Origin: a phage
Assembly: GCA_012365435.1 (NCBI GenBank)
Contig: GCA_012365435.1_4518.1
Direction: 5' to 3' (one strand)
Length of the DNA: 64,000 bases
The stretch's first letter is position 1. Every line of letters starts with the position of its first letter. The notes under the pieces are model-generated. The model was not told the origin of the DNA. It did not search any database and worked only from the letters and a program-made list of their open reading frames with translations. The position numbers and the translations under genes were made by a program. Of the stretch, positions 36-58,504 are shown one piece after another.

Positions 36-401
36 TTATTTACGGAATGAAAGGAATGCTGGTGCTCGGAACGGAGTATCATCTTTAGAGTATTTAACTA
101 ATACGACCATTGGTACCTCTGTTTCTAAATGACCTGTCAGTACACCGATAAAAATTTGATCAGTGTGTTCAGGGTCACGAAAGTTTTTAAGAGGTTCCAT
201 AGCAATATGGAATGCACCTGGGAATACTCGATTCAATTCGTCAATCACAGCTTCGTTAAAAACATCATCTGCCGGGATAACATCTTCAACTACTAGTTCT
301 TGACCATTAAAGCGAAGCATAGATTTCATAACGTTTTCCTCATGTTGTTGATGGGATGATAGTATCACACATCCATGTGCTTGTAAACTATCCTTGAACA
401 A
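36..401 (-). CDS. Hypothetical protein, 121 aa
   Basis: ORF downstream of alt on same strand, followed by terminator hairpin; no recognisable motif. Confidence 0.45.
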   Translation of the reverse strand: MFKDSLQAHGCVILSSHQQHEENVMKSMLRFNGQELVVEDVIPADDVFNEAVIDELNRVFPGAFHIAMEPLKNFRDPEHTDQIFIGVLTGHLETEVPMVVLVKYSKDDTPFRAPAFLSFRK

Positions 402-2475
402 ATTTAAACGGAACCGATTCTAAATCCATTAAAGATGCTAACAATTTCAAACCTTTAGGTGCACTAGTTTTTTCTACAAATGAGGAGAACGATACCGGCT
501 CATCCGATTCGATTTCACCCGTCATAGCAACCACCTCGCCTGTTTCCATGAGAACATCACCATCATAAATGACGGCTTCATCCAACTGGTCTGAGGACAT
601 GACTTCAGCTTGAATAAATTTAAGGTTGGATTCTAAACCTGCACCGGTGTCAGATGACGCATCTGTAATTTTATTTATCTGCAAGAGAATGCCTCTAGGC
701 AAAATAATTTCTTGCTCATTAGGGTGATTACTCAACTGTCCTGGATAAATCACGTTAACTTTATGGGCGCCATCGATAGCCCATCCAACGTTAACACGGA
801 TTTGTTCTGGTGCATGCATAGCTGTTCTTACTTGACTAGGAGAAATAGTAACACCTTCGTCATTATTGTCAATGTTAAGCTCTTTGCGAACTTCTTCAGG
901 AGCAAGTCCAAGGGCAACGTTCTCTTTAAACCCACCGAAAATAATAGGAGCTAGTGAAGTGGAAACATAGTTTCTGAAGTAGAATACCTTATTTTTAACC
1001 ATTGCTTCGTAAATAGGCATTCTGATAGACTGAGCTCTATATAACGTTAGTCCTTCAGGTAAACGGTCTCCATTTAAAAACGCCGAATCAAGACCATCAA
1101 TAGCGCGTTTAACTTCATCTTCATCCGCAACATCGTAAAAATCTGGTTTATAACGACCTAACAACATATTATTGATATCGGTATACGCAGAAGAGGCATA
1201 TTCACGAATAGCTCGTTTTTCAGCAACAGAGTATTGTTTAGGGTCCCGATTCATTGTTATATTAAAGGTGCCTCTAGCCGATTCTCGTGCATAAGTATAC
1301 ATCACATTAGACAAGAACGCTGATTTACGTTGTTTCCAAGTTCTTTCAGATACTTCAGCTAAAACATCGTCAGGCAGTTGGAAATTATCACGTCTAAAAT
1401 CTTCAAACCATTCGTCTCTAATAGAGTCTGCAATTTCGTTTGCAGCTTCAACAAAAGCGGCTAATGCTTTAACAGATGTTGTTTTTTCAGTTTTAATTTT
1501 CTTAGCAAACTTTTCTAAAGTCGGCTTAATAACACTACCATAAGAAACTTCATCAGCAAATTTAAAGGATTCATCAATACGATTATAAATCTTATTTTCG
1601 ATATCAGCAACTAAAGTGCCTTTTGCTGTGGACGATGCTTGGGCTAGTACAATTTCATATGCTTCAGGAAGTAATTCGGCTGTAGCTGGGCCACTAACTT
1701 CTTTAGCAGAATTTTCATATTTCTGGAATAACTCACCTTCTTGGCGGTCAGCTTCTAAAGATTGACTTGCTGCAATAGCACGACGAGAAATTTTAGTACG
1801 AGCAATAACAGGCTTATCTTTACGTTTTTCTTCTACAGCAGCAATAGAACCAGCAATAGCCGTTTCTTTGGTGACCTTTTCACCAGTCTTTTTACTCACA
1901 TAAACTTCGCCAACATCAGAATCTACTTTCGTGTACAACTCTGTGTTAATGTTAGGGATGCCTTTAATATCTTCAATGTTGGCATTTTTACGAACCATCA
2001 TCACATAGGTGTGTTTACCTGTGAATTGATACATTGCCGACAATACTTTAAAACGACCACCAGTTTTAGTAGAAACTAAACGAGCAAGAAGAGTTTGAAG
2101 CTGCTGTCCACGTCCTTTCAATTTCTTGGTAGGGAATCGGAACAGAACTGCATCCATACGAAGAGCTTTAACCTGTTCATACACTGTGTTGAAAATGGTG
2201 TTGATTGCATCAATAGGAGCAGGACCAAGGCCATTTTTCAATTCAGCGAGATTACCCTTTTCAGACAGACTCATAATAACGACATGAGCGTATTTGTCGC
2301 CAAGTTTAACTTGTTTTACAGCGTCGCCTTCGGAAAGGTAAGAGAATAAACGAACTACGATGTTTGTATCGATATCACCAATTTTCCAGACTTGTGGAAC
2401 TTTAGCTTTAGGGTTCAAATTGACGACAGGAAGACTGCCTTCAGATTCAAACACTTCATTTAATTGTTCAGACAT
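388..2475 (-). CDS. alt: Alt-like ADP-ribosyltransferase (virion-injected), 695 aa
   Basis: Size close to T4 Alt (682 aa), position adjacent to DNA ligase as in T4; assignment by synteny and recalled similarity. Confidence 0.7.
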   Translation of the reverse strand: MSEQLNEVFESEGSLPVVNLNPKAKVPQVWKIGDIDTNIVVRLFSYLSEGDAVKQVKLGDKYAHVVIMSLSEKGNLAELKNGLGPAPIDAINTIFNTVYEQVKALRMDAVLFRFPTKKLKGRGQQLQTLLARLVSTKTGGRFKVLSAMYQFTGKHTYVMMVRKNANIEDIKGIPNINTELYTKVDSDVGEVYVSKKTGEKVTKETAIAGSIAAVEEKRKDKPVIARTKISRRAIAASQSLEADRQEGELFQKYENSAKEVSGPATAELLPEAYEIVLAQASSTAKGTLVADIENKIYNRIDESFKFADEVSYGSVIKPTLEKFAKKIKTEKTTSVKALAAFVEAANEIADSIRDEWFEDFRRDNFQLPDDVLAEVSERTWKQRKSAFLSNVMYTYARESARGTFNITMNRDPKQYSVAEKRAIREYASSAYTDINNMLLGRYKPDFYDVADEDEVKRAIDGLDSAFLNGDRLPEGLTLYRAQSIRMPIYEAMVKNKVFYFRNYVSTSLAPIIFGGFKENVALGLAPEEVRKELNIDNNDEGVTISPSQVRTAMHAPEQIRVNVGWAIDGAHKVNVIYPGQLSNHPNEQEIILPRGILLQINKITDASSDTGAGLESNLKFIQAEVMSSDQLDEAVIYDGDVLMETGEVVAMTGEIESDEPVSFSSFVEKTSAPKGLKLLASLMDLESVPFKFVQG

Positions 2476-2530: not shown

Positions 2531-2740
2531 TTAATCCACAATCGGGAGCAAAGTACGATAAACTTCAAAATTAGGGCCTTTTTCGTACTTATCAAAATTG
2601 TCCATAAAAATATGATAGGAATCGTTATTAGGAAAATCTAATATAATCTGAGAACAAGAGGTGGAAACATCTCCACCATCCTTCTTAGCTACAATAACTG
2701 TTTCTAAATAAGCTTTCATTATAAACCTGTCTGGGACCAC
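2531..2740 (-). CDS. Hypothetical small protein (69 aa; true start may be the internal Met at MKAYLET)
   Basis: ORF between ligase and alt; overlaps ligase 3' end by 22 nt if the long start is used. Confidence 0.4.
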   Translation of the reverse strand: MVPDRFIMKAYLETVIVAKKDGGDVSTSCSQIILDFPNNDSYHIFMDNFDKYEKGPNFEVYRTLLPIVD

Positions 2741-4212
2741 GGTCCAAATACGTCTTCAAATGAATCCGCTTCTGTTTTATCAAAACGGAACCCTTTAATA
2801 ATTGGAAGGAAAATACCTACAGTACCTTCACGGCCTTTAGAATGAACCCAACCATTACATTCGCAATCAGCAATACGTCCAATCAATTTACCTTCATGAG
2901 CTTCAGCCATTAATCGTTCACGGTCTAAATCATGACGCTCATCTAAAGGAATAAGAACCTTTACACCATCAACTGTTTTATGAGTTGTATCTTTAAACCC
3001 TGAACCACAATCGGTTGTAATACGACGACAACGTGATACGAGTTCGACACCACCTAATTTGTTAGGGTCTTTAGAGTGTTCATAGTATCCTACAACTTCT
3101 AAAGCGATATCAATAACTTCTTTAAATTTAATTAGGTTCTTAGAGCGTTTGTTTTCCCAGTATGAATCACGGTTTTTAAGGATAATACCTTCAAGACCTT
3201 GGTCAACATATTTTTTATAAACCACTTTAGCTTCGTCAAGATTACGAACTAACTGATTTTCAATTGGCTCAATTCGCTTAAAGCCTTCAGCCATATTTTC
3301 AAGAGCAGCAAAACGAACATCGTATTTCTGACCTTTAATTTTGCCATCAGAGTAGACTTCATCTAAAGGAACATAGTCCCAGGCTTGAAGAACCATACCT
3401 TCCGCTTCTTTAGGAGAAATAGTCCCTTGAAGAGATTTATTTGCTAAACCATTTGAAGTGCTACGGTCTGCAACTTGTACTTCTTCGGATTCTTCATTAT
3501 CGCCAAATAAGAACGACAGGTCATTTCCTGAGCTCACAGCCTTTTTAATATCAAATGAATGATAAACTAATTCACCGTCGATTAAAACCCCATTAGGGTG
3601 TCTTTCACGAGCTTCTTTAGTCATTTCCATTAGTTCATCTGCTAATAGAGTAAGACCATGGTATTCGTTACCGGCACGAGAAAAGAATTGAACGCCATCA
3701 TCGCGAACTTCAGCGAAACAACGAGCACCATCTGCCTTTAATTGGGCAAATGCAGGCCATTTAATATTTTTAGTAATCAATTTCTCATCATATGCAGATG
3801 CTAACATCTGTGGCTGCAATTGAATAAGTCCAGGCCACACCTTATTCGCGATAGACACTGAAGCACCTACTTCAAGGTCTCGCATCATTACACGACGAAG
3901 GACTTCTACATCATCAGGTTTACCGTCAGCGATATAACCCATGAGCTCTTTAATTGCAGCATTACCAGTGAGTTTACGAGTGGCTAATGTGAACTCAATA
4001 AAATCCAACATGTCATCTAATTCAAGAAGACCATACGCTTGAGACCTTTCACCTGGTCCTGGCCATTTCTTAATATAATACTGGATACCACGTGCATATG
4101 TTAAACGATACACACGTTCAAGTAATTTGTTGTCCTTATTTTTCTTAAGGATTTCTTGTTTTGTTTTAGTAGAACCGATCGCAGCTATTTGGTTTAAAAT
4201 ATCTAAAATCAT
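2719..4212 (-). CDS. 30: ATP-dependent DNA ligase, 497 aa
   Basis: KxDG adenylation motif (KADGARCF), length and overall match to T4 gp30. Confidence 0.95.
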   Translation of the reverse strand: MILDILNQIAAIGSTKTKQEILKKNKDNKLLERVYRLTYARGIQYYIKKWPGPGERSQAYGLLELDDMLDFIEFTLATRKLTGNAAIKELMGYIADGKPDDVEVLRRVMMRDLEVGASVSIANKVWPGLIQLQPQMLASAYDEKLITKNIKWPAFAQLKADGARCFAEVRDDGVQFFSRAGNEYHGLTLLADELMEMTKEARERHPNGVLIDGELVYHSFDIKKAVSSGNDLSFLFGDNEESEEVQVADRSTSNGLANKSLQGTISPKEAEGMVLQAWDYVPLDEVYSDGKIKGQKYDVRFAALENMAEGFKRIEPIENQLVRNLDEAKVVYKKYVDQGLEGIILKNRDSYWENKRSKNLIKFKEVIDIALEVVGYYEHSKDPNKLGGVELVSRCRRITTDCGSGFKDTTHKTVDGVKVLIPLDERHDLDRERLMAEAHEGKLIGRIADCECNGWVHSKGREGTVGIFLPIIKGFRFDKTEADSFEDVFGPWSQTGL

Positions 4213-4478
4213 TTGATGTCCTCGATTTTGGTTACGGTTCTATTATAAGCCACTTCATCTAGAAGCGATTTAAGCGTTTTCTGATAGGTGGTAATCCATT
4301 TACCAAGCCCTTCAACGTAATATTCTGAAATGTAGATGAACCCTTGTTCAACACACTCTTTAAATATTTCTGCGTCTTTTACTGAACGAAACAATGGCCA
4401 GTCTCGAAAGAACATGTTAACATGGCCGTAGTCACGTGTGGTGTTTTTGCCATCTGTAATATCATGAACTACAAACAT
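4209..4478 (-). CDS. Hypothetical protein, 89 aa (30.1 position)
   Basis: ORF with ATGA overlap to ligase start. Confidence 0.5.
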   Translation of the reverse strand: MFVVHDITDGKNTTRDYGHVNMFFRDWPLFRSVKDAEIFKECVEQGFIYISEYYVEGLGKWITTYQKTLKSLLDEVAYNRTVTKIEDIK

Positions 4479-4487
4479 AATTGACCC

Positions 4488-5312
4488 TTAACAATTTATA
4501 GACCAAGTCCATTTAGACGAATCTAAAGGAAAGTTTTGAATCGTCCACCACGGCTGCATATCAGTTGGTCCTGGGGTTCGCCAGGTATATGGAGTACGTG
4601 TTGTCGAGGGGCCACCAATTTGATTAGGCCATGCACCTGGACTTGTTGCACCAGATTCTTTAAGTAAATCCGCCAATCGTTTTAAAAGGTCTTCACGATC
4701 TGAATCTGAATTATGCTTGGGTGGAACCAAACGAGATTCAATATCATCCCATGTGTGTACACGTTGTGCAGTGCGAGGAATATCATCACGTTCACCACGA
4801 GCCAACCAATAAATCGGTACATTAAGAATTTCTGCCGCATGGTCACAGTGATGAGCTAAATCGTCAACGTAACAAATCACGTTATATTTTGTTTTAGCTA
4901 GTTCGAATAATTGTTCCTTTGAAGAATCATGACCACACATCATTACTTCAGAAAAGGCGCCTGGGAACAAAGCATTCAAATTAAATTGTCTATTCAATCG
5001 AGCATCAATTGAATCACCTAGCGCCGTCACGGCTACAAAATTATAGTCTTCTTTTAGTTTATTGATAACTCGAAGAGCATCCGAATAAGGCGCTAAGTAA
5101 CGAATAAAATCAGAGCGATTATATTTTTCTATTAATTGTTTACCGAGGTTATCATCGGTATTGAATAGTTTACCAGGAGAAATAAATTTTTCGTCCTGAA
5201 TCATTTTTAAAATATGTTCTAATGGAAGATTATATTTTTGGGCAAAATAAGGAAGTCCAGATTGCCAGCTTAAACATACACCATCAATATCAGTCAAAAT
5301 AGTAGGCTTCAT
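4488..5312 (-). CDS. HAD-superfamily hydrolase-like protein with low-complexity P/W/T-rich C-terminal tail, 274 aa
   Basis: N-terminal DIDGV (HAD motif I), later VDD (motif IV); last ~80 aa compositionally unusual. Confidence 0.6.
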   Translation of the reverse strand: MKPTILTDIDGVCLSWQSGLPYFAQKYNLPLEHILKMIQDEKFISPGKLFNTDDNLGKQLIEKYNRSDFIRYLAPYSDALRVINKLKEDYNFVAVTALGDSIDARLNRQFNLNALFPGAFSEVMMCGHDSSKEQLFELAKTKYNVICYVDDLAHHCDHAAEILNVPIYWLARGERDDIPRTAQRVHTWDDIESRLVPPKHNSDSDREDLLKRLADLLKESGATSPGAWPNQIGGPSTTRTPYTWRTPGPTDMQPWWTIQNFPLDSSKWTWSINC

Positions 5313-5776
5313 AAAGAGTCTCTTAATAGGTTTAACACATCAATAAATTCAGCTTCGGTTAATATTGTATCATCTTTTGTTAGGTGGCTGGCCATGCTGT
5401 GCTTCAAAATTTTTCCTTTCGAAGCCTGTAATGCATCACGAAACCCCTTGTTTTGGATCGCGGCTTCAAAATATGCATTTGTGTATAATTCTTTCCACGC
5501 TTCAGAGTATCTTGAAAATGGAACTCCTAACCAGAAGAGTGTCCCATGGTCCTGAGCTCTTGCATAAGACCTTCCAGCTTGCTGTGCGGCCAGTCCTGAC
5601 AGCCCAAATATACGTCTTTGTTGTTCAACATTTTTCACCTTACATCCTTGGAGAAATCCTTCAAGACCTCCGAATTGAATACCATCCATAACGAAAGGCC
5701 ACTGGGCAAAATTACTTAATGCACATGACGGCCATCTAAAATTGCTTCTAATCTCTAACTCAGACATCTTTAACAC
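5309..5776 (-). CDS. NADAR (YbiA/DUF1768) domain protein, 155 aa
   Basis: LSNFAQWPF..DG..F...E.FLQ..K matches the YbiA/NADAR signature FSNFAAWP..DG..W...EHYFQAQK; stop/start overlap with HAD ORF. Confidence 0.65.
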   Translation of the reverse strand: MLKMSELEIRSNFRWPSCALSNFAQWPFVMDGIQFGGLEGFLQGCKVKNVEQQRRIFGLSGLAAQQAGRSYARAQDHGTLFWLGVPFSRYSEAWKELYTNAYFEAAIQNKGFRDALQASKGKILKHSMASHLTKDDTILTEAEFIDVLNLLRDSL

Positions 5777-5972
5777 TTATAATTTCAACATCAGCCCAAT
5801 GACCATAAGCCGGTAGACGGTCTTTGATAGATAATCCACCGTCATATTTCAGCATTTTAATTGTTTTAGTATATGGTTCAACTTTTCGGGCCCATGGGCT
5901 TACATCAGTCACACGATACGTAACTTCAACCATTTCTGTACCTAACAATTTCTGGATTAATTTATTCAACAT
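5760..5972 (-). CDS. Hypothetical protein, 70 aa
   Basis: ORF in early cluster, same strand. Confidence 0.4.
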   Translation of the reverse strand: MLNKLIQKLLGTEMVEVTYRVTDVSPWARKVEPYTKTIKMLKYDGGLSIKDRLPAYGHWADVEIISVKDV

Positions 5973-6159
5973 GTTTCAACCCTTTAATAGGAGATAACTC
6001 TTTACCCATACGTATGTCAGAAGTCCAATCAACCCATTGAACAGCATACGCTTCATTGATAATTCCAGCGGCGGTTTTAAATTCAGGGAGAACTTTAAAA
6101 ATCACCCCAGGAATTCCAACACCTTTTAATTGGACTGTTTGTGCTATTAAAAATTTCAT
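5962..6159 (-). CDS. Hypothetical protein, 65 aa
   Basis: ORF preceded by early-promoter-like element at 6180..6215. Confidence 0.4.
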   Translation of the reverse strand: MKFLIAQTVQLKGVGIPGVIFKVLPEFKTAAGIINEAYAVQWVDWTSDIRMGKELSPIKGLKHVE

Positions 6160-6213
6160 ATTTTTCCACTTACTAAAGAAATCATTATACTCTAATCCGT
6201 CCTTGGATGTAAA

Positions 6214-6828
6214 CTACTTAATGAAATTAATTTCTACCGGATGAACAATAGGTTGAGCAGTGATATATTGAGTAACTGCTTTCATGACTAGAGCTTCAGA
6301 ACCAGGATTTTTCTCAACGAATTCACGTGCTTGGTTATGAGCTTCAAGTTCACTTAGTAAACCACTTCTTTGACATCCACGGTCTTGAGTACCCTGTTCA
6401 GATAAAAAGGCGACGATGTATTTTTCATCGTCATACGGTTTAGGCAGTTGAGCAAATGTTCCTTTACTTCCAAAAGGAGAGTTATGACACCACATCACAC
6501 CGTGAGGAGTTTCAACCTTGGTATATTCGTGTGGACCATTTTTCTTAGTTTCTTGTTGTGAAACTTCATGGACCTTATGGTTATGACATTCAATAAAATG
6601 CTCATCTAAATCAGTCGAGAATATTAAAGTAAAACAATTACTGAATTTACCAACACCTGCCTGATAAATTTTACCTTCAGAAGTTCTAATTTCACAAACC
6701 GAGCCGGCATCAGTAACTTCTAAAACTTCAAAAGGCTCAATAAGGTCATATGAGAACATGTTTTTAAGGCGTGGAGTAATATCCCCATTTTTAAAATTCA
6801 TTTTATAAAAAGTATTAACTTTAAACAT
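6214..6828 (-). CDS. Hypothetical protein, 204 aa
   Basis: ORF with upstream hairpin plus aggaaattATG start context. Confidence 0.55.
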   Translation of the reverse strand: MFKVNTFYKMNFKNGDITPRLKNMFSYDLIEPFEVLEVTDAGSVCEIRTSEGKIYQAGVGKFSNCFTLIFSTDLDEHFIECHNHKVHEVSQQETKKNGPHEYTKVETPHGVMWCHNSPFGSKGTFAQLPKPYDDEKYIVAFLSEQGTQDRGCQRSGLLSELEAHNQAREFVEKNPGSEALVMKAVTQYITAQPIVHPVEINFIK

Positions 6829-57256: not shown

Positions 57257-57865
57257 TCAGTAACTGACAATAGACAGATTCCAGATTGTATAACGTCCAT
57301 CTTGAATAATAGAATCTACACGCAGTGTAGTCCCTATAGGGAGCATAAATTCACATTCGTCAGATATAAGTCTAGCATTAGACCGTCTTGTCGCTTCAGG
57401 GAAAGCTCCATTGAACTCGCAAGATGGCGCAGCCAGAATCATATTAAGCATATGTTCACGGAAGTTGAAAGCAAATGGTGCATCTTTGATGCAGAACATA
57501 TTAAATGTTCCGTAAAAATTATACGAAGCAAAGTTACGTGCTACACCGAACACTGGGCTGAAGCTCATTACTCTGTCAAATTTAATAATACTACCAATGC
57601 CTTTATCATCAAGTGTGGCCATAGTTTTCTTAGAGATTCCACGATACATTGTCTCAGGAACAGAAGACGTCCAATTTCTACGAACGATTGAACTTAACTC
57701 CTGTTGGATGCTATCTGGCTTGTTTTCCATACACTGCCACAGTACACTTTGTTCAATGTCGCTGAATTGACTATCAATTTCGTACTGCAATACATCTTGA
57801 TATTCGGGGTTTTGAGCACGACGAACCATTTCTTCAATTTCACACTCGTTATACGGCATAAACAT
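57257..57865 (-). CDS. modA: ADP-ribosyltransferase ModA-like, 202 aa
   Basis: ART-like R (MYRG), S-x-S and E-x-E (DECEF) elements; position as T4 modA. Confidence 0.7.
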   Translation of the reverse strand: MFMPYNECEIEEMVRRAQNPEYQDVLQYEIDSQFSDIEQSVLWQCMENKPDSIQQELSSIVRRNWTSSVPETMYRGISKKTMATLDDKGIGSIIKFDRVMSFSPVFGVARNFASYNFYGTFNMFCIKDAPFAFNFREHMLNMILAAPSCEFNGAFPEATRRSNARLISDECEFMLPIGTTLRVDSIIQDGRYTIWNLSIVSY

Positions 57866-57922: not shown

Positions 57923-58504
57923 CTAAAAATTCAACATTTTCAAATGAATGATTTTGTATAACCGAGATAAAGGGTCATATTCTAAGTCTTCAATTTCCAC
58001 AATCTCAAATCTAGAGATACCTGAGACCATGTATTCTTGTTCAGATTCAATCATATCTAGGACGTCAACACGCGTTTCTTCCATAACATGCTTAGGATTC
58101 TTTCCAGCGAGTATAATGTTAACCATGTTTTGGTAGTAATCAAAAATGAATGGAGCATTTCGAAGACTAAGAATAGTGTACGTTTGATATTCCCATCTCC
58201 CAGAGAATTGACGAGCTGTACTGAAATCAGTTGTGAATGATGTCACGCGTCCAGGAGACCAATGGCATCCAACAGAAAGAAGGGAAAGACGTTCTACTTC
58301 TTCTGGAGTTACACCACGGTAGAGTTCTACTGGTACTGTAGAAGTCATATGCTTACGGACAAGATGGTCTAATTCATAGTGGAAATCTGGGTCTTCCTTA
58401 GAATCAGTGCAAGCCCAGAGAATGTTTTGTTCTTGGCGGGTGAATTTGCTATCAATCAGATTTGTTAGGTATTCGCGTTCTTGAAGTTCAGATTGACATG
58501 TCAT
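57923..58504 (-). CDS. modB: ADP-ribosyltransferase ModB-like, 193 aa
   Basis: Paralogue of modA (LYRG, ESEQEY); position as T4 modB. Confidence 0.7.
   Translation of the reverse strand: MTCQSELQEREYLTNLIDSKFTRQEQNILWACTDSKEDPDFHYELDHLVRKHMTSTVPVELYRGVTPEEVERLSLLSVGCHWSPGRVTSFTTDFSTARQFSGRWEYQTYTILSLRNAPFIFDYYQNMVNIILAGKNPKHVMEETRVDVLDMIESEQEYMVSGISRFEIVEIEDLEYDPLSRLYKIIHLKMLNF

Follow-up and report, generated by a model that had tools for sequence, protein, structure and literature searches.

The window analysed in this work is a stretch of phage DNA of 64,000 nucleotides, which in the region examined here shares 96-98.6% DNA identity with RB69-like (Mosigvirus) coliphages, e.g., TH12, JS09, and SHSML-52-1; the phage is a T-even, Mosigvirus-like (RB69-like) one and not a Tequatrovirus. 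The locus is a compact block of genes on the minus strand embedding, from upstream to downstream, a 30.5-like ORF (5962-6159, from the ORF list), gene 30.4 (5760-5972, 70 aa, assigned through phrog_2042), gene 30.3, i.e., adfN (5309-5767, coding for a 152-aa protein of the NADAR superfamily), gene 30.2 (4488-5312, coding for a 274-aa phosphatase-like protein of the HAD superfamily), gene 30.1 (4209-4478, DUF3045, matching PF11243 with E=1.4e-26), and gene 30 (2719-4212, PF01068), which codes for the ATP-dependent DNA ligase and is the conserved downstream neighbour of 30.2. A preliminary description of this DNA had placed the two genes 30.3 and 30.2 close to a DNA ligase gene, which is correct, with 30.1 lying between 30.2 and the ligase.

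In the ORF list, the two genes appear as minus-strand ORFs spanning 5309-5776 (155 aa from a GTG) and 4488-5312 (274 aa). The longer form of the former, on which the preliminary description was based, does exist as an ORF starting from the GTG at 5776; its true product, however, is almost certainly the 152-aa protein starting from the ATG at 5767, since T4 gene 30.3 is 459 nt long and codes for 152 aa. The ATGA overlap between the two genes that had been described is exact and lies at 5309-5312 on the minus strand: reading 5300-5330 as its reverse complement gives ...AGA GAC TCT TTA TGA AGC CT, where the TGA stop codon of the upstream gene adfN (5311-5309) overlaps the ATG start codon of the downstream gene 30.2 (5312-5310), an overlap of 4 nt that is also part of the T4 annotation. 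At its other end, adfN overlaps the last 8 nt of 30.4, in T4 as well as in the window. Overlaps also exist between 30.5 and 30.4 and between 30.1 and 30, and 30.2 and 30.1 are separated by 9 nt. In the T4 annotation, genes 30.5, 30.4, 30.3, 30.2, 30.1, and 30 form the corresponding block, including the 4-nt and 8-nt overlaps, and the RB69 annotation has this block without 30.5.

A consensus scan revealed a sigma-70-like promoter match (TTTACA-18-TATAAT, 11/12) at 6184-6213 on the minus strand, upstream of 30.5, and no terminator-like site on this strand between 6184 and 2719. This single strong promoter-like site can be regarded as a candidate for the start of a transcript running from 30.5 to the ligase.

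Both ORFs are real genes and not chance ORFs: the phage records in which tblastn retrieved their products number 1511 for the 152-aa protein and 1445 for the 274-aa one. The three ADP-ribosyltransferases that had been attributed to this phage are also present in the window, as a homologue of Alt (about 391-2469) and as two ORFs similar to ModA/ModB (about 57266-57859 and 57992-58447), all on the minus strand.

AdfN and the NADAR superfamily

The 152-aa protein matches the Pfam family PF08010 (Phage_30_3) with E=2.7e-69 and 231.7 bits against a gathering cut-off of 36. The preliminary description had recognized a YbiA/NADAR signature in it and had indicated the lack of a NADAR HMM hit as the result that would speak against this assignment. 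Indeed, no direct match with PF08719 (NADAR) exists in Pfam, even at E<=10; the protein has no phmmer match among PDB sequences, and searches in NCBIfam and PADLOC gave no match either. Nevertheless, the signature is recovered by stronger evidence, that is, by the family profile, the homologues, the predicted fold, and the residues E36, K43, and H123. PF08719 is matched by 12 of the 74 gp30.3 homologues (best E=1.5e-7), and the gp30.3 family profile reaches E. coli YbiA (2b3w, the only PDB sequence that it reaches) with E=0.0043, the match covering the SNF...E-x3-Q-x2-K motif. The AlphaFold2 model (mean pLDDT 94.2, pTM 0.89) exhibits the expected helices and short hairpins, and a Foldseek search of the PDB with this model placed the three NADAR structures 2b3w, 8bau, and 8bat on top, the next match having E=3. 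The best structural match is that with YbiA (E=1.7e-4, TM 0.67), even though the two proteins share only 18% identity; the probability for the NADARs of Phytophthora (8bau) and Geobacter (8bat) is 0.92-1.00. On this profile, transitive, and structural evidence, the protein belongs to the NADAR superfamily, and within it to the phage gp30.3/AdfN branch, which Pfam keeps separate as PF08010.

The alignment of 74 homologues locates the catalytic E-x3-Q-x2-K motif of AdfN at 5639-5662 on the minus strand, from E36 (5662-5660) to K43 (5641-5639); its counterpart in YbiA of E. coli is SEHYFQAQKF. E36, Q40, and H123 do not vary among the homologues, and K43 is conserved in at least 90% of them. H123 (codon at 5399-5401, minus strand) replaces the Glu or Asp found in the last strand of other NADARs, including 8bat and 8bau, and this His is the residue distinguishing the phage NADARs of the gp30.3 branch (PMC11125620, PMC11825919). 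AdfN is a His variant; YbiA, which is linked with riboflavin overflow and with swarming, is a Glu variant.

The T4 protein is the orthologue of the one described here: it has the same length, the same residues E36, K43, and H123, and its gene has the same position and overlaps. The two proteins are identical at 147 of 152 residues (97%) and differ by five substitutions, conservative or at the surface (R74H, P89E, V120I, I125M, and G128H), none of which is catalytic, in spite of the different phage groups, the window phage being RB69-like and T4 a Tequatrovirus. Gene 30.3 of the window can be identified with adfN, a name introduced for T4 gene 30.3 by Johannesman et al. (2025, PMC11825919), and through its near-identical T4 counterpart it has already been published.

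The idea that this NADAR protein might remove ADP-ribose from guanine and counteract DarT, as the preliminary description had suggested, is correct in the light of the data available for T4. In vitro, T4 gp30.3 hydrolyses ADP-ribose linked to guanine in DNA and leaves thymine-ADP-ribose uncleaved (PMC11125620, 2024). Deletion of adfN leaves both T4 and T2 unable to form plaques on DarTG1 hosts, and E36A, K43A, and the truncation of the C-terminal helix each impair T4 AdfN (PMC11825919). Genome-wide transposon sequencing of T4, carried out with a single DarTG1 system and in rich medium (HIDEN-SEQ, preprint 10.1101/2025.11.20.689424) revealed a log2 fold change of -7.25 for 30.3 (adjusted p 0) on the DarTG1 host, the gene being non-essential without DarTG1.

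In RB69, the adfN allele is truncated by a T insertion at nt 411 with loss of the C-terminal helix, which is the reason for the sensitivity of RB69 to DarTG1; ectopic adfN rescues this phage on DarTG1 hosts (PMC11825919). A three-way DNA alignment revealed that the RB69-type T insertion is absent from the window, where AdfN has its full 152 aa and a predicted C-terminal helix at residues 138-151. Since the frameshift is lacking and the helix is maintained, this copy should be functional, as far as the activity of the allele can be deduced from its sequence.

The fold and the hydrolysis of guanine-linked ADP-ribose, the latter demonstrated for the T4 orthologue, are shared with the DarG1/DarT1-associated NADAR antitoxins (Geobacter lovleyi, 8bat) and with the Phytophthora NADAR (8bau). 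Unlike DarG1, AdfN of the window lacks an N-terminal extension, and uninfected E. coli is not protected against DarT1 toxicity by the T4 orthologue (PMC11825919). No DarT toxin gene was found beside adfN, either by Pfam analysis of the neighbours, which are 30.4 and 30.2, or by PADLOC analysis of AdfN and gp30.2. AdfN is an antitoxin-like protein, that is, an "orphan antitoxin", and not part of a toxin-antitoxin system.

The HAD-like Protein gp30.2

The neighbouring gene had been described as coding for a HAD-type, phosphatase-like protein, and this is borne out by its motifs and by its predicted fold. gp30.2 carries all four HAD catalytic motifs (DxD, S/T, K/R, and DD or ED): motif I is represented by the nucleophile D8 and by D10 (5283-5291, minus strand), both invariant in 76 homologues, and motifs II-IV (4860-5027, minus strand) by T96 (5027-5025), K132 (4919-4917), and D150 and D151 (4865-4860), of which K132 is invariant and the others are conserved in at least 90% of the 76 sequences. 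The second Asp of motif I points to a phosphotransferase rather than to a dehalogenase. The model has a confident Rossmann-like HAD core and a cap domain, whose helices (residues 16-86) sit between motifs I and II, i.e., in the C1 cap position; in the HAD family, a C1 cap usually means a small-molecule substrate.

The HMM check against HAD families gave a weak result. The match of gp30.2 with HAD_2 (E=0.02, 15.4 bits) is below the Pfam gathering score of 23.8, while 8 of the 76 homologues match PF00702 (best E=9.6e-5). NT5C (PF06941) is not matched by gp30.2 of the window and is matched weakly, at E>=0.002, by four of the 76 homologues. Mouse 5'(3')-deoxyribonucleotidase (2jao) was reached by phmmer at E=0.8 and by the profile at E=0.3, the remaining phmmer matches among PDB sequences being noise, and NCBIfam and PADLOC returned nothing useful for this protein. 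In the alignment with 2jao, DIDGVCLSW of gp30.2 corresponds to DMDGVLADF of NT5C, with W16 placed on the Phe of DGVLADF. Identity with members of the NT5C family (cdN/mdN, 2jao, 4yih, 1q92, and 4mum; S. epidermidis 3bwv) is 14-18%, and these deoxyribonucleotidases are among the best matches, with structural scores no better than those of other HAD subfamilies. As none of the HAD subfamilies stands out, the substrate class can only be inferred; gp30.2 is a capped protein of the HAD phosphatase type and most likely a Mg2+-dependent phosphomonoesterase acting on a small nucleotide-like substrate.

Differently from the NT5C family, gp30.2 has an additional, disordered, and variable C-terminal extension (residues 196-274; 4491-4727, minus strand), which is hypervariable between phages. 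In this extension, a single helix is predicted (202-219), and after it comes a tail of about 55 residues, rich in Trp, Pro, and Thr and predicted to be disordered, with block-mean pLDDT values of 41-59 from residue 221 on. The homologues are between 176 and 347 aa long, and only the first 195 residues or so are conserved. The tail of the window protein matches that of RB69 gp30.2, with which the overall identity is 97.8%; it cannot be aligned with the T4 tail, even as DNA. The possibility that it represents a frameshifted T4 tail was considered and rejected, because neither DNA similarity nor a match in an alternative frame exists, and the tail was thus simply replaced. The literature search yielded no relevant paper on gp30.2 or on 30.1, 30.2, and 30.3 together, and the NARP3 paper is silent on HAD proteins and on 30.2.

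Linkage Between Genes 30.3 and 30.2

The order 30.3-30.2-(30.1)-ligase is found also in T4-like genomes of the Acinetobacter type and in jumbo ones (220-235 kb), and its persistence in such genomes makes the arrangement look ancestral. Nevertheless, the linkage between the two genes is far from universal, and the majority of distant phages have lost it. Among 80 viral loci anchored on 30.3, a 30.2 gene is present within 5 kb in 20 (adjacent in 14) and none is present within this distance in the other 60; in several complete T4-like genomes (e.g., PG7-like, 44RR-like, and Cronus-like), the two genes are about 55-65 kb apart. No conserved neighbour accompanies the distant homologues of 30.3, the largest neighbour cluster including 7 of the 60 loci. 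A 254-aa ORF lying downstream of the 30.3 homologue of a jumbo phage was considered as a possible relative of gp30.2 and was rejected. When the analysis was anchored on 30.2 (78 loci), the ligase gene was found within 1.5 kb in 70 of them and 30.3 within 5 kb in 36; in these 36, 30.3 was either adjacent to 30.2 or within about 1.3 kb of it. The conserved genomic partner of 30.2 is the DNA ligase and not AdfN.

Discussion

The pair of genes described here corresponds to the already known T4 genes 30.3 (adfN) and 30.2. We consider it very probable that they represent two independent early genes, one coding for the DNA ADP-ribosylglycohydrolase AdfN and the other for a HAD phosphatase, packed in the T4 style within a likely 30.5-to-ligase transcription unit. 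The identity of the genes, the predicted folds, the conserved motifs, and the linkage come from the analysis carried out in this work, and the enzyme activity and the DarTG1 phenotype from the literature on the 97%-identical T4 orthologue. According to this scheme, on a DarTG1 host DarT1 would ADP-ribosylate guanine bases of the phage DNA, with a consequent block of replication; AdfN, acting as an N-glycohydrolase with the NADAR fold, would cleave the guanine-ADP-ribose bond through E36, K43, and the branch-specific H123, and this hydrolysis would allow phage replication to be restored. gp30.2, in turn, would act through a phospho-Asp8 intermediate and would be dispensable both for growth and for the counter-defence against DarTG1.

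A different scenario, put forward in the preliminary description, is that the two genes form a true anti-defence or ADP-ribose-processing module. In such a module, gp30.2 might remove the ADP-ribose set free by AdfN, or a phosphorylated form of it, or might represent the T-even helper of AdfN. Several data might be read in this way: the ATGA overlap has been kept from T4 to the window phage, and in nearly half of the loci anchored on 30.2, gene 30.3 is its immediate upstream neighbour or is found no more than about 1.3 kb away. Moreover, AdfN, besides failing in uninfected cells, rescues T5 and Bas25 only in part, so that a T-even helper factor has been proposed (PMC11825919), and RB69, in which ectopic AdfN fully works, has an intact gp30.2. 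However, overlaps run through the whole block from 30.5 to the ligase, and the one between 30.3 and 30.2 is therefore nothing special; the two genes are unlinked in three-quarters of the loci anchored on 30.3; and the removal of ADP-ribose from guanine leaves DNA without any phosphate to be processed. T4 30.2 is fully non-essential, with insertions at 72 of 72 TA sites, and insertions in it are neutral under DarTG1 (log2 fold change -0.12, adjusted p 1.0, 71 TA sites), the same condition in which those in 30.3 are wiped out (10.1101/2025.11.20.689424). gp30.2 is thus not needed in T4 for the counter-defence exerted by AdfN; as the helper factor it is a weak candidate, and this role is rejected on these transposon data. 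On the whole, a functional module appears very unlikely and the claim is not sustained, even though a minor, subsidiary functional tie between 30.3 and 30.2 may exist.

It might also be imagined that AdfN mainly has a housekeeping role in connection with Alt, ModA, and ModB of the phage, or that it clears soluble or RNA-linked ADP-ribose, with the reversal of DarT action being secondary. In favour of this idea, Alt and two Mod-like enzymes are encoded by the phage; T4-like NADARs are expressed early together with ADP-ribosyltransferases, and soluble ADP-ribose derivatives have been favoured as their substrates (PMC9503650). Against it, the target of Alt and Mod enzymes is arginine in proteins, which is not known to be a substrate of NADARs once modified. 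Moreover, guanine-ADP-ribosylated DNA is the only substrate on which an activity has been demonstrated, thymine-ADP-ribose being left uncleaved (PMC11125620), and the complete loss of plaquing of the deletion mutants (PMC11825919), like the strong depletion of 30.3 insertions, was seen under DarTG1, in a gene otherwise non-essential (10.1101/2025.11.20.689424); we regard such a main role as highly improbable. The analogy with riboflavin damage control, where a NADAR acting on riboflavin intermediates would be paired with a HAD protein working as a YigB-type phosphatase, is the most implausible of all and was discarded. YbiA-type NADARs do have a role in riboflavin metabolism (PMC11125620, PMC9503650), and one JGI record names a gp30.2 homologue "FMN phosphatase YigB"; this name, however, is an automated COG label. 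The riboflavin function belongs to the Glu-carrying YbiA branch and AdfN to the His-containing phage one (PMC11125620), no riboflavin genes are present nearby according to the ORFs and Pfam, and the experimentally established role is the de-ADP-ribosylation of DNA.

Returning to the reading of two independent early genes, the anti-DarT role of the NADAR protein was published for T4 in 2024-2025, and so no new biology is added by its identification here. At the level of the single phage, since adfN is intact in the window and frameshifted in RB69, the phage analysed in this work should be resistant to DarTG1, a prediction which, for an RB69-like phage, matters for host-range prediction. Two small questions are also raised, concerning the role of the conserved, ligase-linked gp30.2 and the identity of the T-even factor potentiating AdfN.

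With regard to the latter, the only T4 gene besides 30.3 that is significantly depleted genome-wide under DarTG1 is 30.4 (log2 fold change -1.79, adjusted p 0.014; 10.1101/2025.11.20.689424). It might be speculated that the relevant pair is 30.4-adfN, with gp30.4, which in our search was restricted to coliphages of the T-even type (722 records), being the T-even factor needed for full AdfN activity; we consider this unlikely. The ribosome-binding site and the start codon of adfN lie inside 30.4, and the depletion is more simply explained by a polar effect of the 30.4 insertions on adfN. In addition, gp30.4 of the window shares 44% identity with that of T4, as compared with the 97% shared by the two AdfN proteins, and T4 AdfN fully works in RB69, which argues against a tight partnership between gp30.4 and AdfN.

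Alleles and distribution of adfN

Truncated or fused fragments of gp30.3 (83-121 aa) occur in many T-even phages (examples among the homologues are P0008, P0014, P0015, P0017, P0051, and P0100), and part of them are fused to Pfam families of the 30.7/30.8 type. In addition to these fragments, RB69 carries a frameshifted adfN allele (locus L160, 8268-8681). Given the many fragments and the RB69 frameshift, natural adfN-null alleles seem to be common.

The T4-annotated internal ORF 30.3' is not conserved in the window, where the equivalent alternative frame within adfN (5404-5631, minus strand) runs for 34 codons before meeting a stop, an indication that 30.3' is not a real gene.

A gp30.3 homologue (38% identical) is also present on jumbo-phage-like metagenomic contigs of up to 308 kb (loci L162-L165); NUDIX and Thg1-like genes lie close to it, and no HAD neighbour was found at these loci.

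Genes surrounding adfN

Gene 30.4 (70 aa; 5760-5972, minus strand) shares 8 nt with the beginning of adfN. When T4 was subjected to transposon sequencing under DarTG1 selection, 30.4 was depleted (log2FC -1.79, adjusted p 0.014), and adfN and 30.4 were the only genes significantly depleted (10.1101/2025.11.20.689424). The depletion of 30.4 might reflect either a polar effect or a role of gp30.4 as an AdfN helper. The gene is restricted to T-even coliphages and its product is, judging from sequence, fast-evolving, the identity to the T4 counterpart being 44% for gp30.4 versus 97% for AdfN.

The C-terminal extension of the HAD phosphatase-like gp30.2 (residues 196-274; 4491-4727, minus strand) is Trp/Pro/Thr-rich and predicted to be mostly disordered. 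It is swapped among phage lineages, matching the RB69 version and not being alignable with the T4 one. Many gp30.2 homologues, including that of T4, end with a conserved GIEYL..(Q/R)P motif, which is absent from the window allele.

The place of gene 30.6, a 95-aa gene in T4 and RB69, is instead occupied by a 204-aa phrog_17531 ORF (6214-6828, minus strand), in what looks like a gene replacement. The promoter-like site (6184-6213) lies directly downstream of this ORF.

ADP-ribosyltransferase genes

Two ModA/ModB-like ADP-ribosyltransferase ORFs (57266-57859 and 57992-58447, both minus strand) share 30-39% identity with their T4 counterparts, and the Alt homologue (391-2469, minus strand) is 41% identical to T4 Alt; all three have diverged from T4 far more than the 97% identical AdfN.
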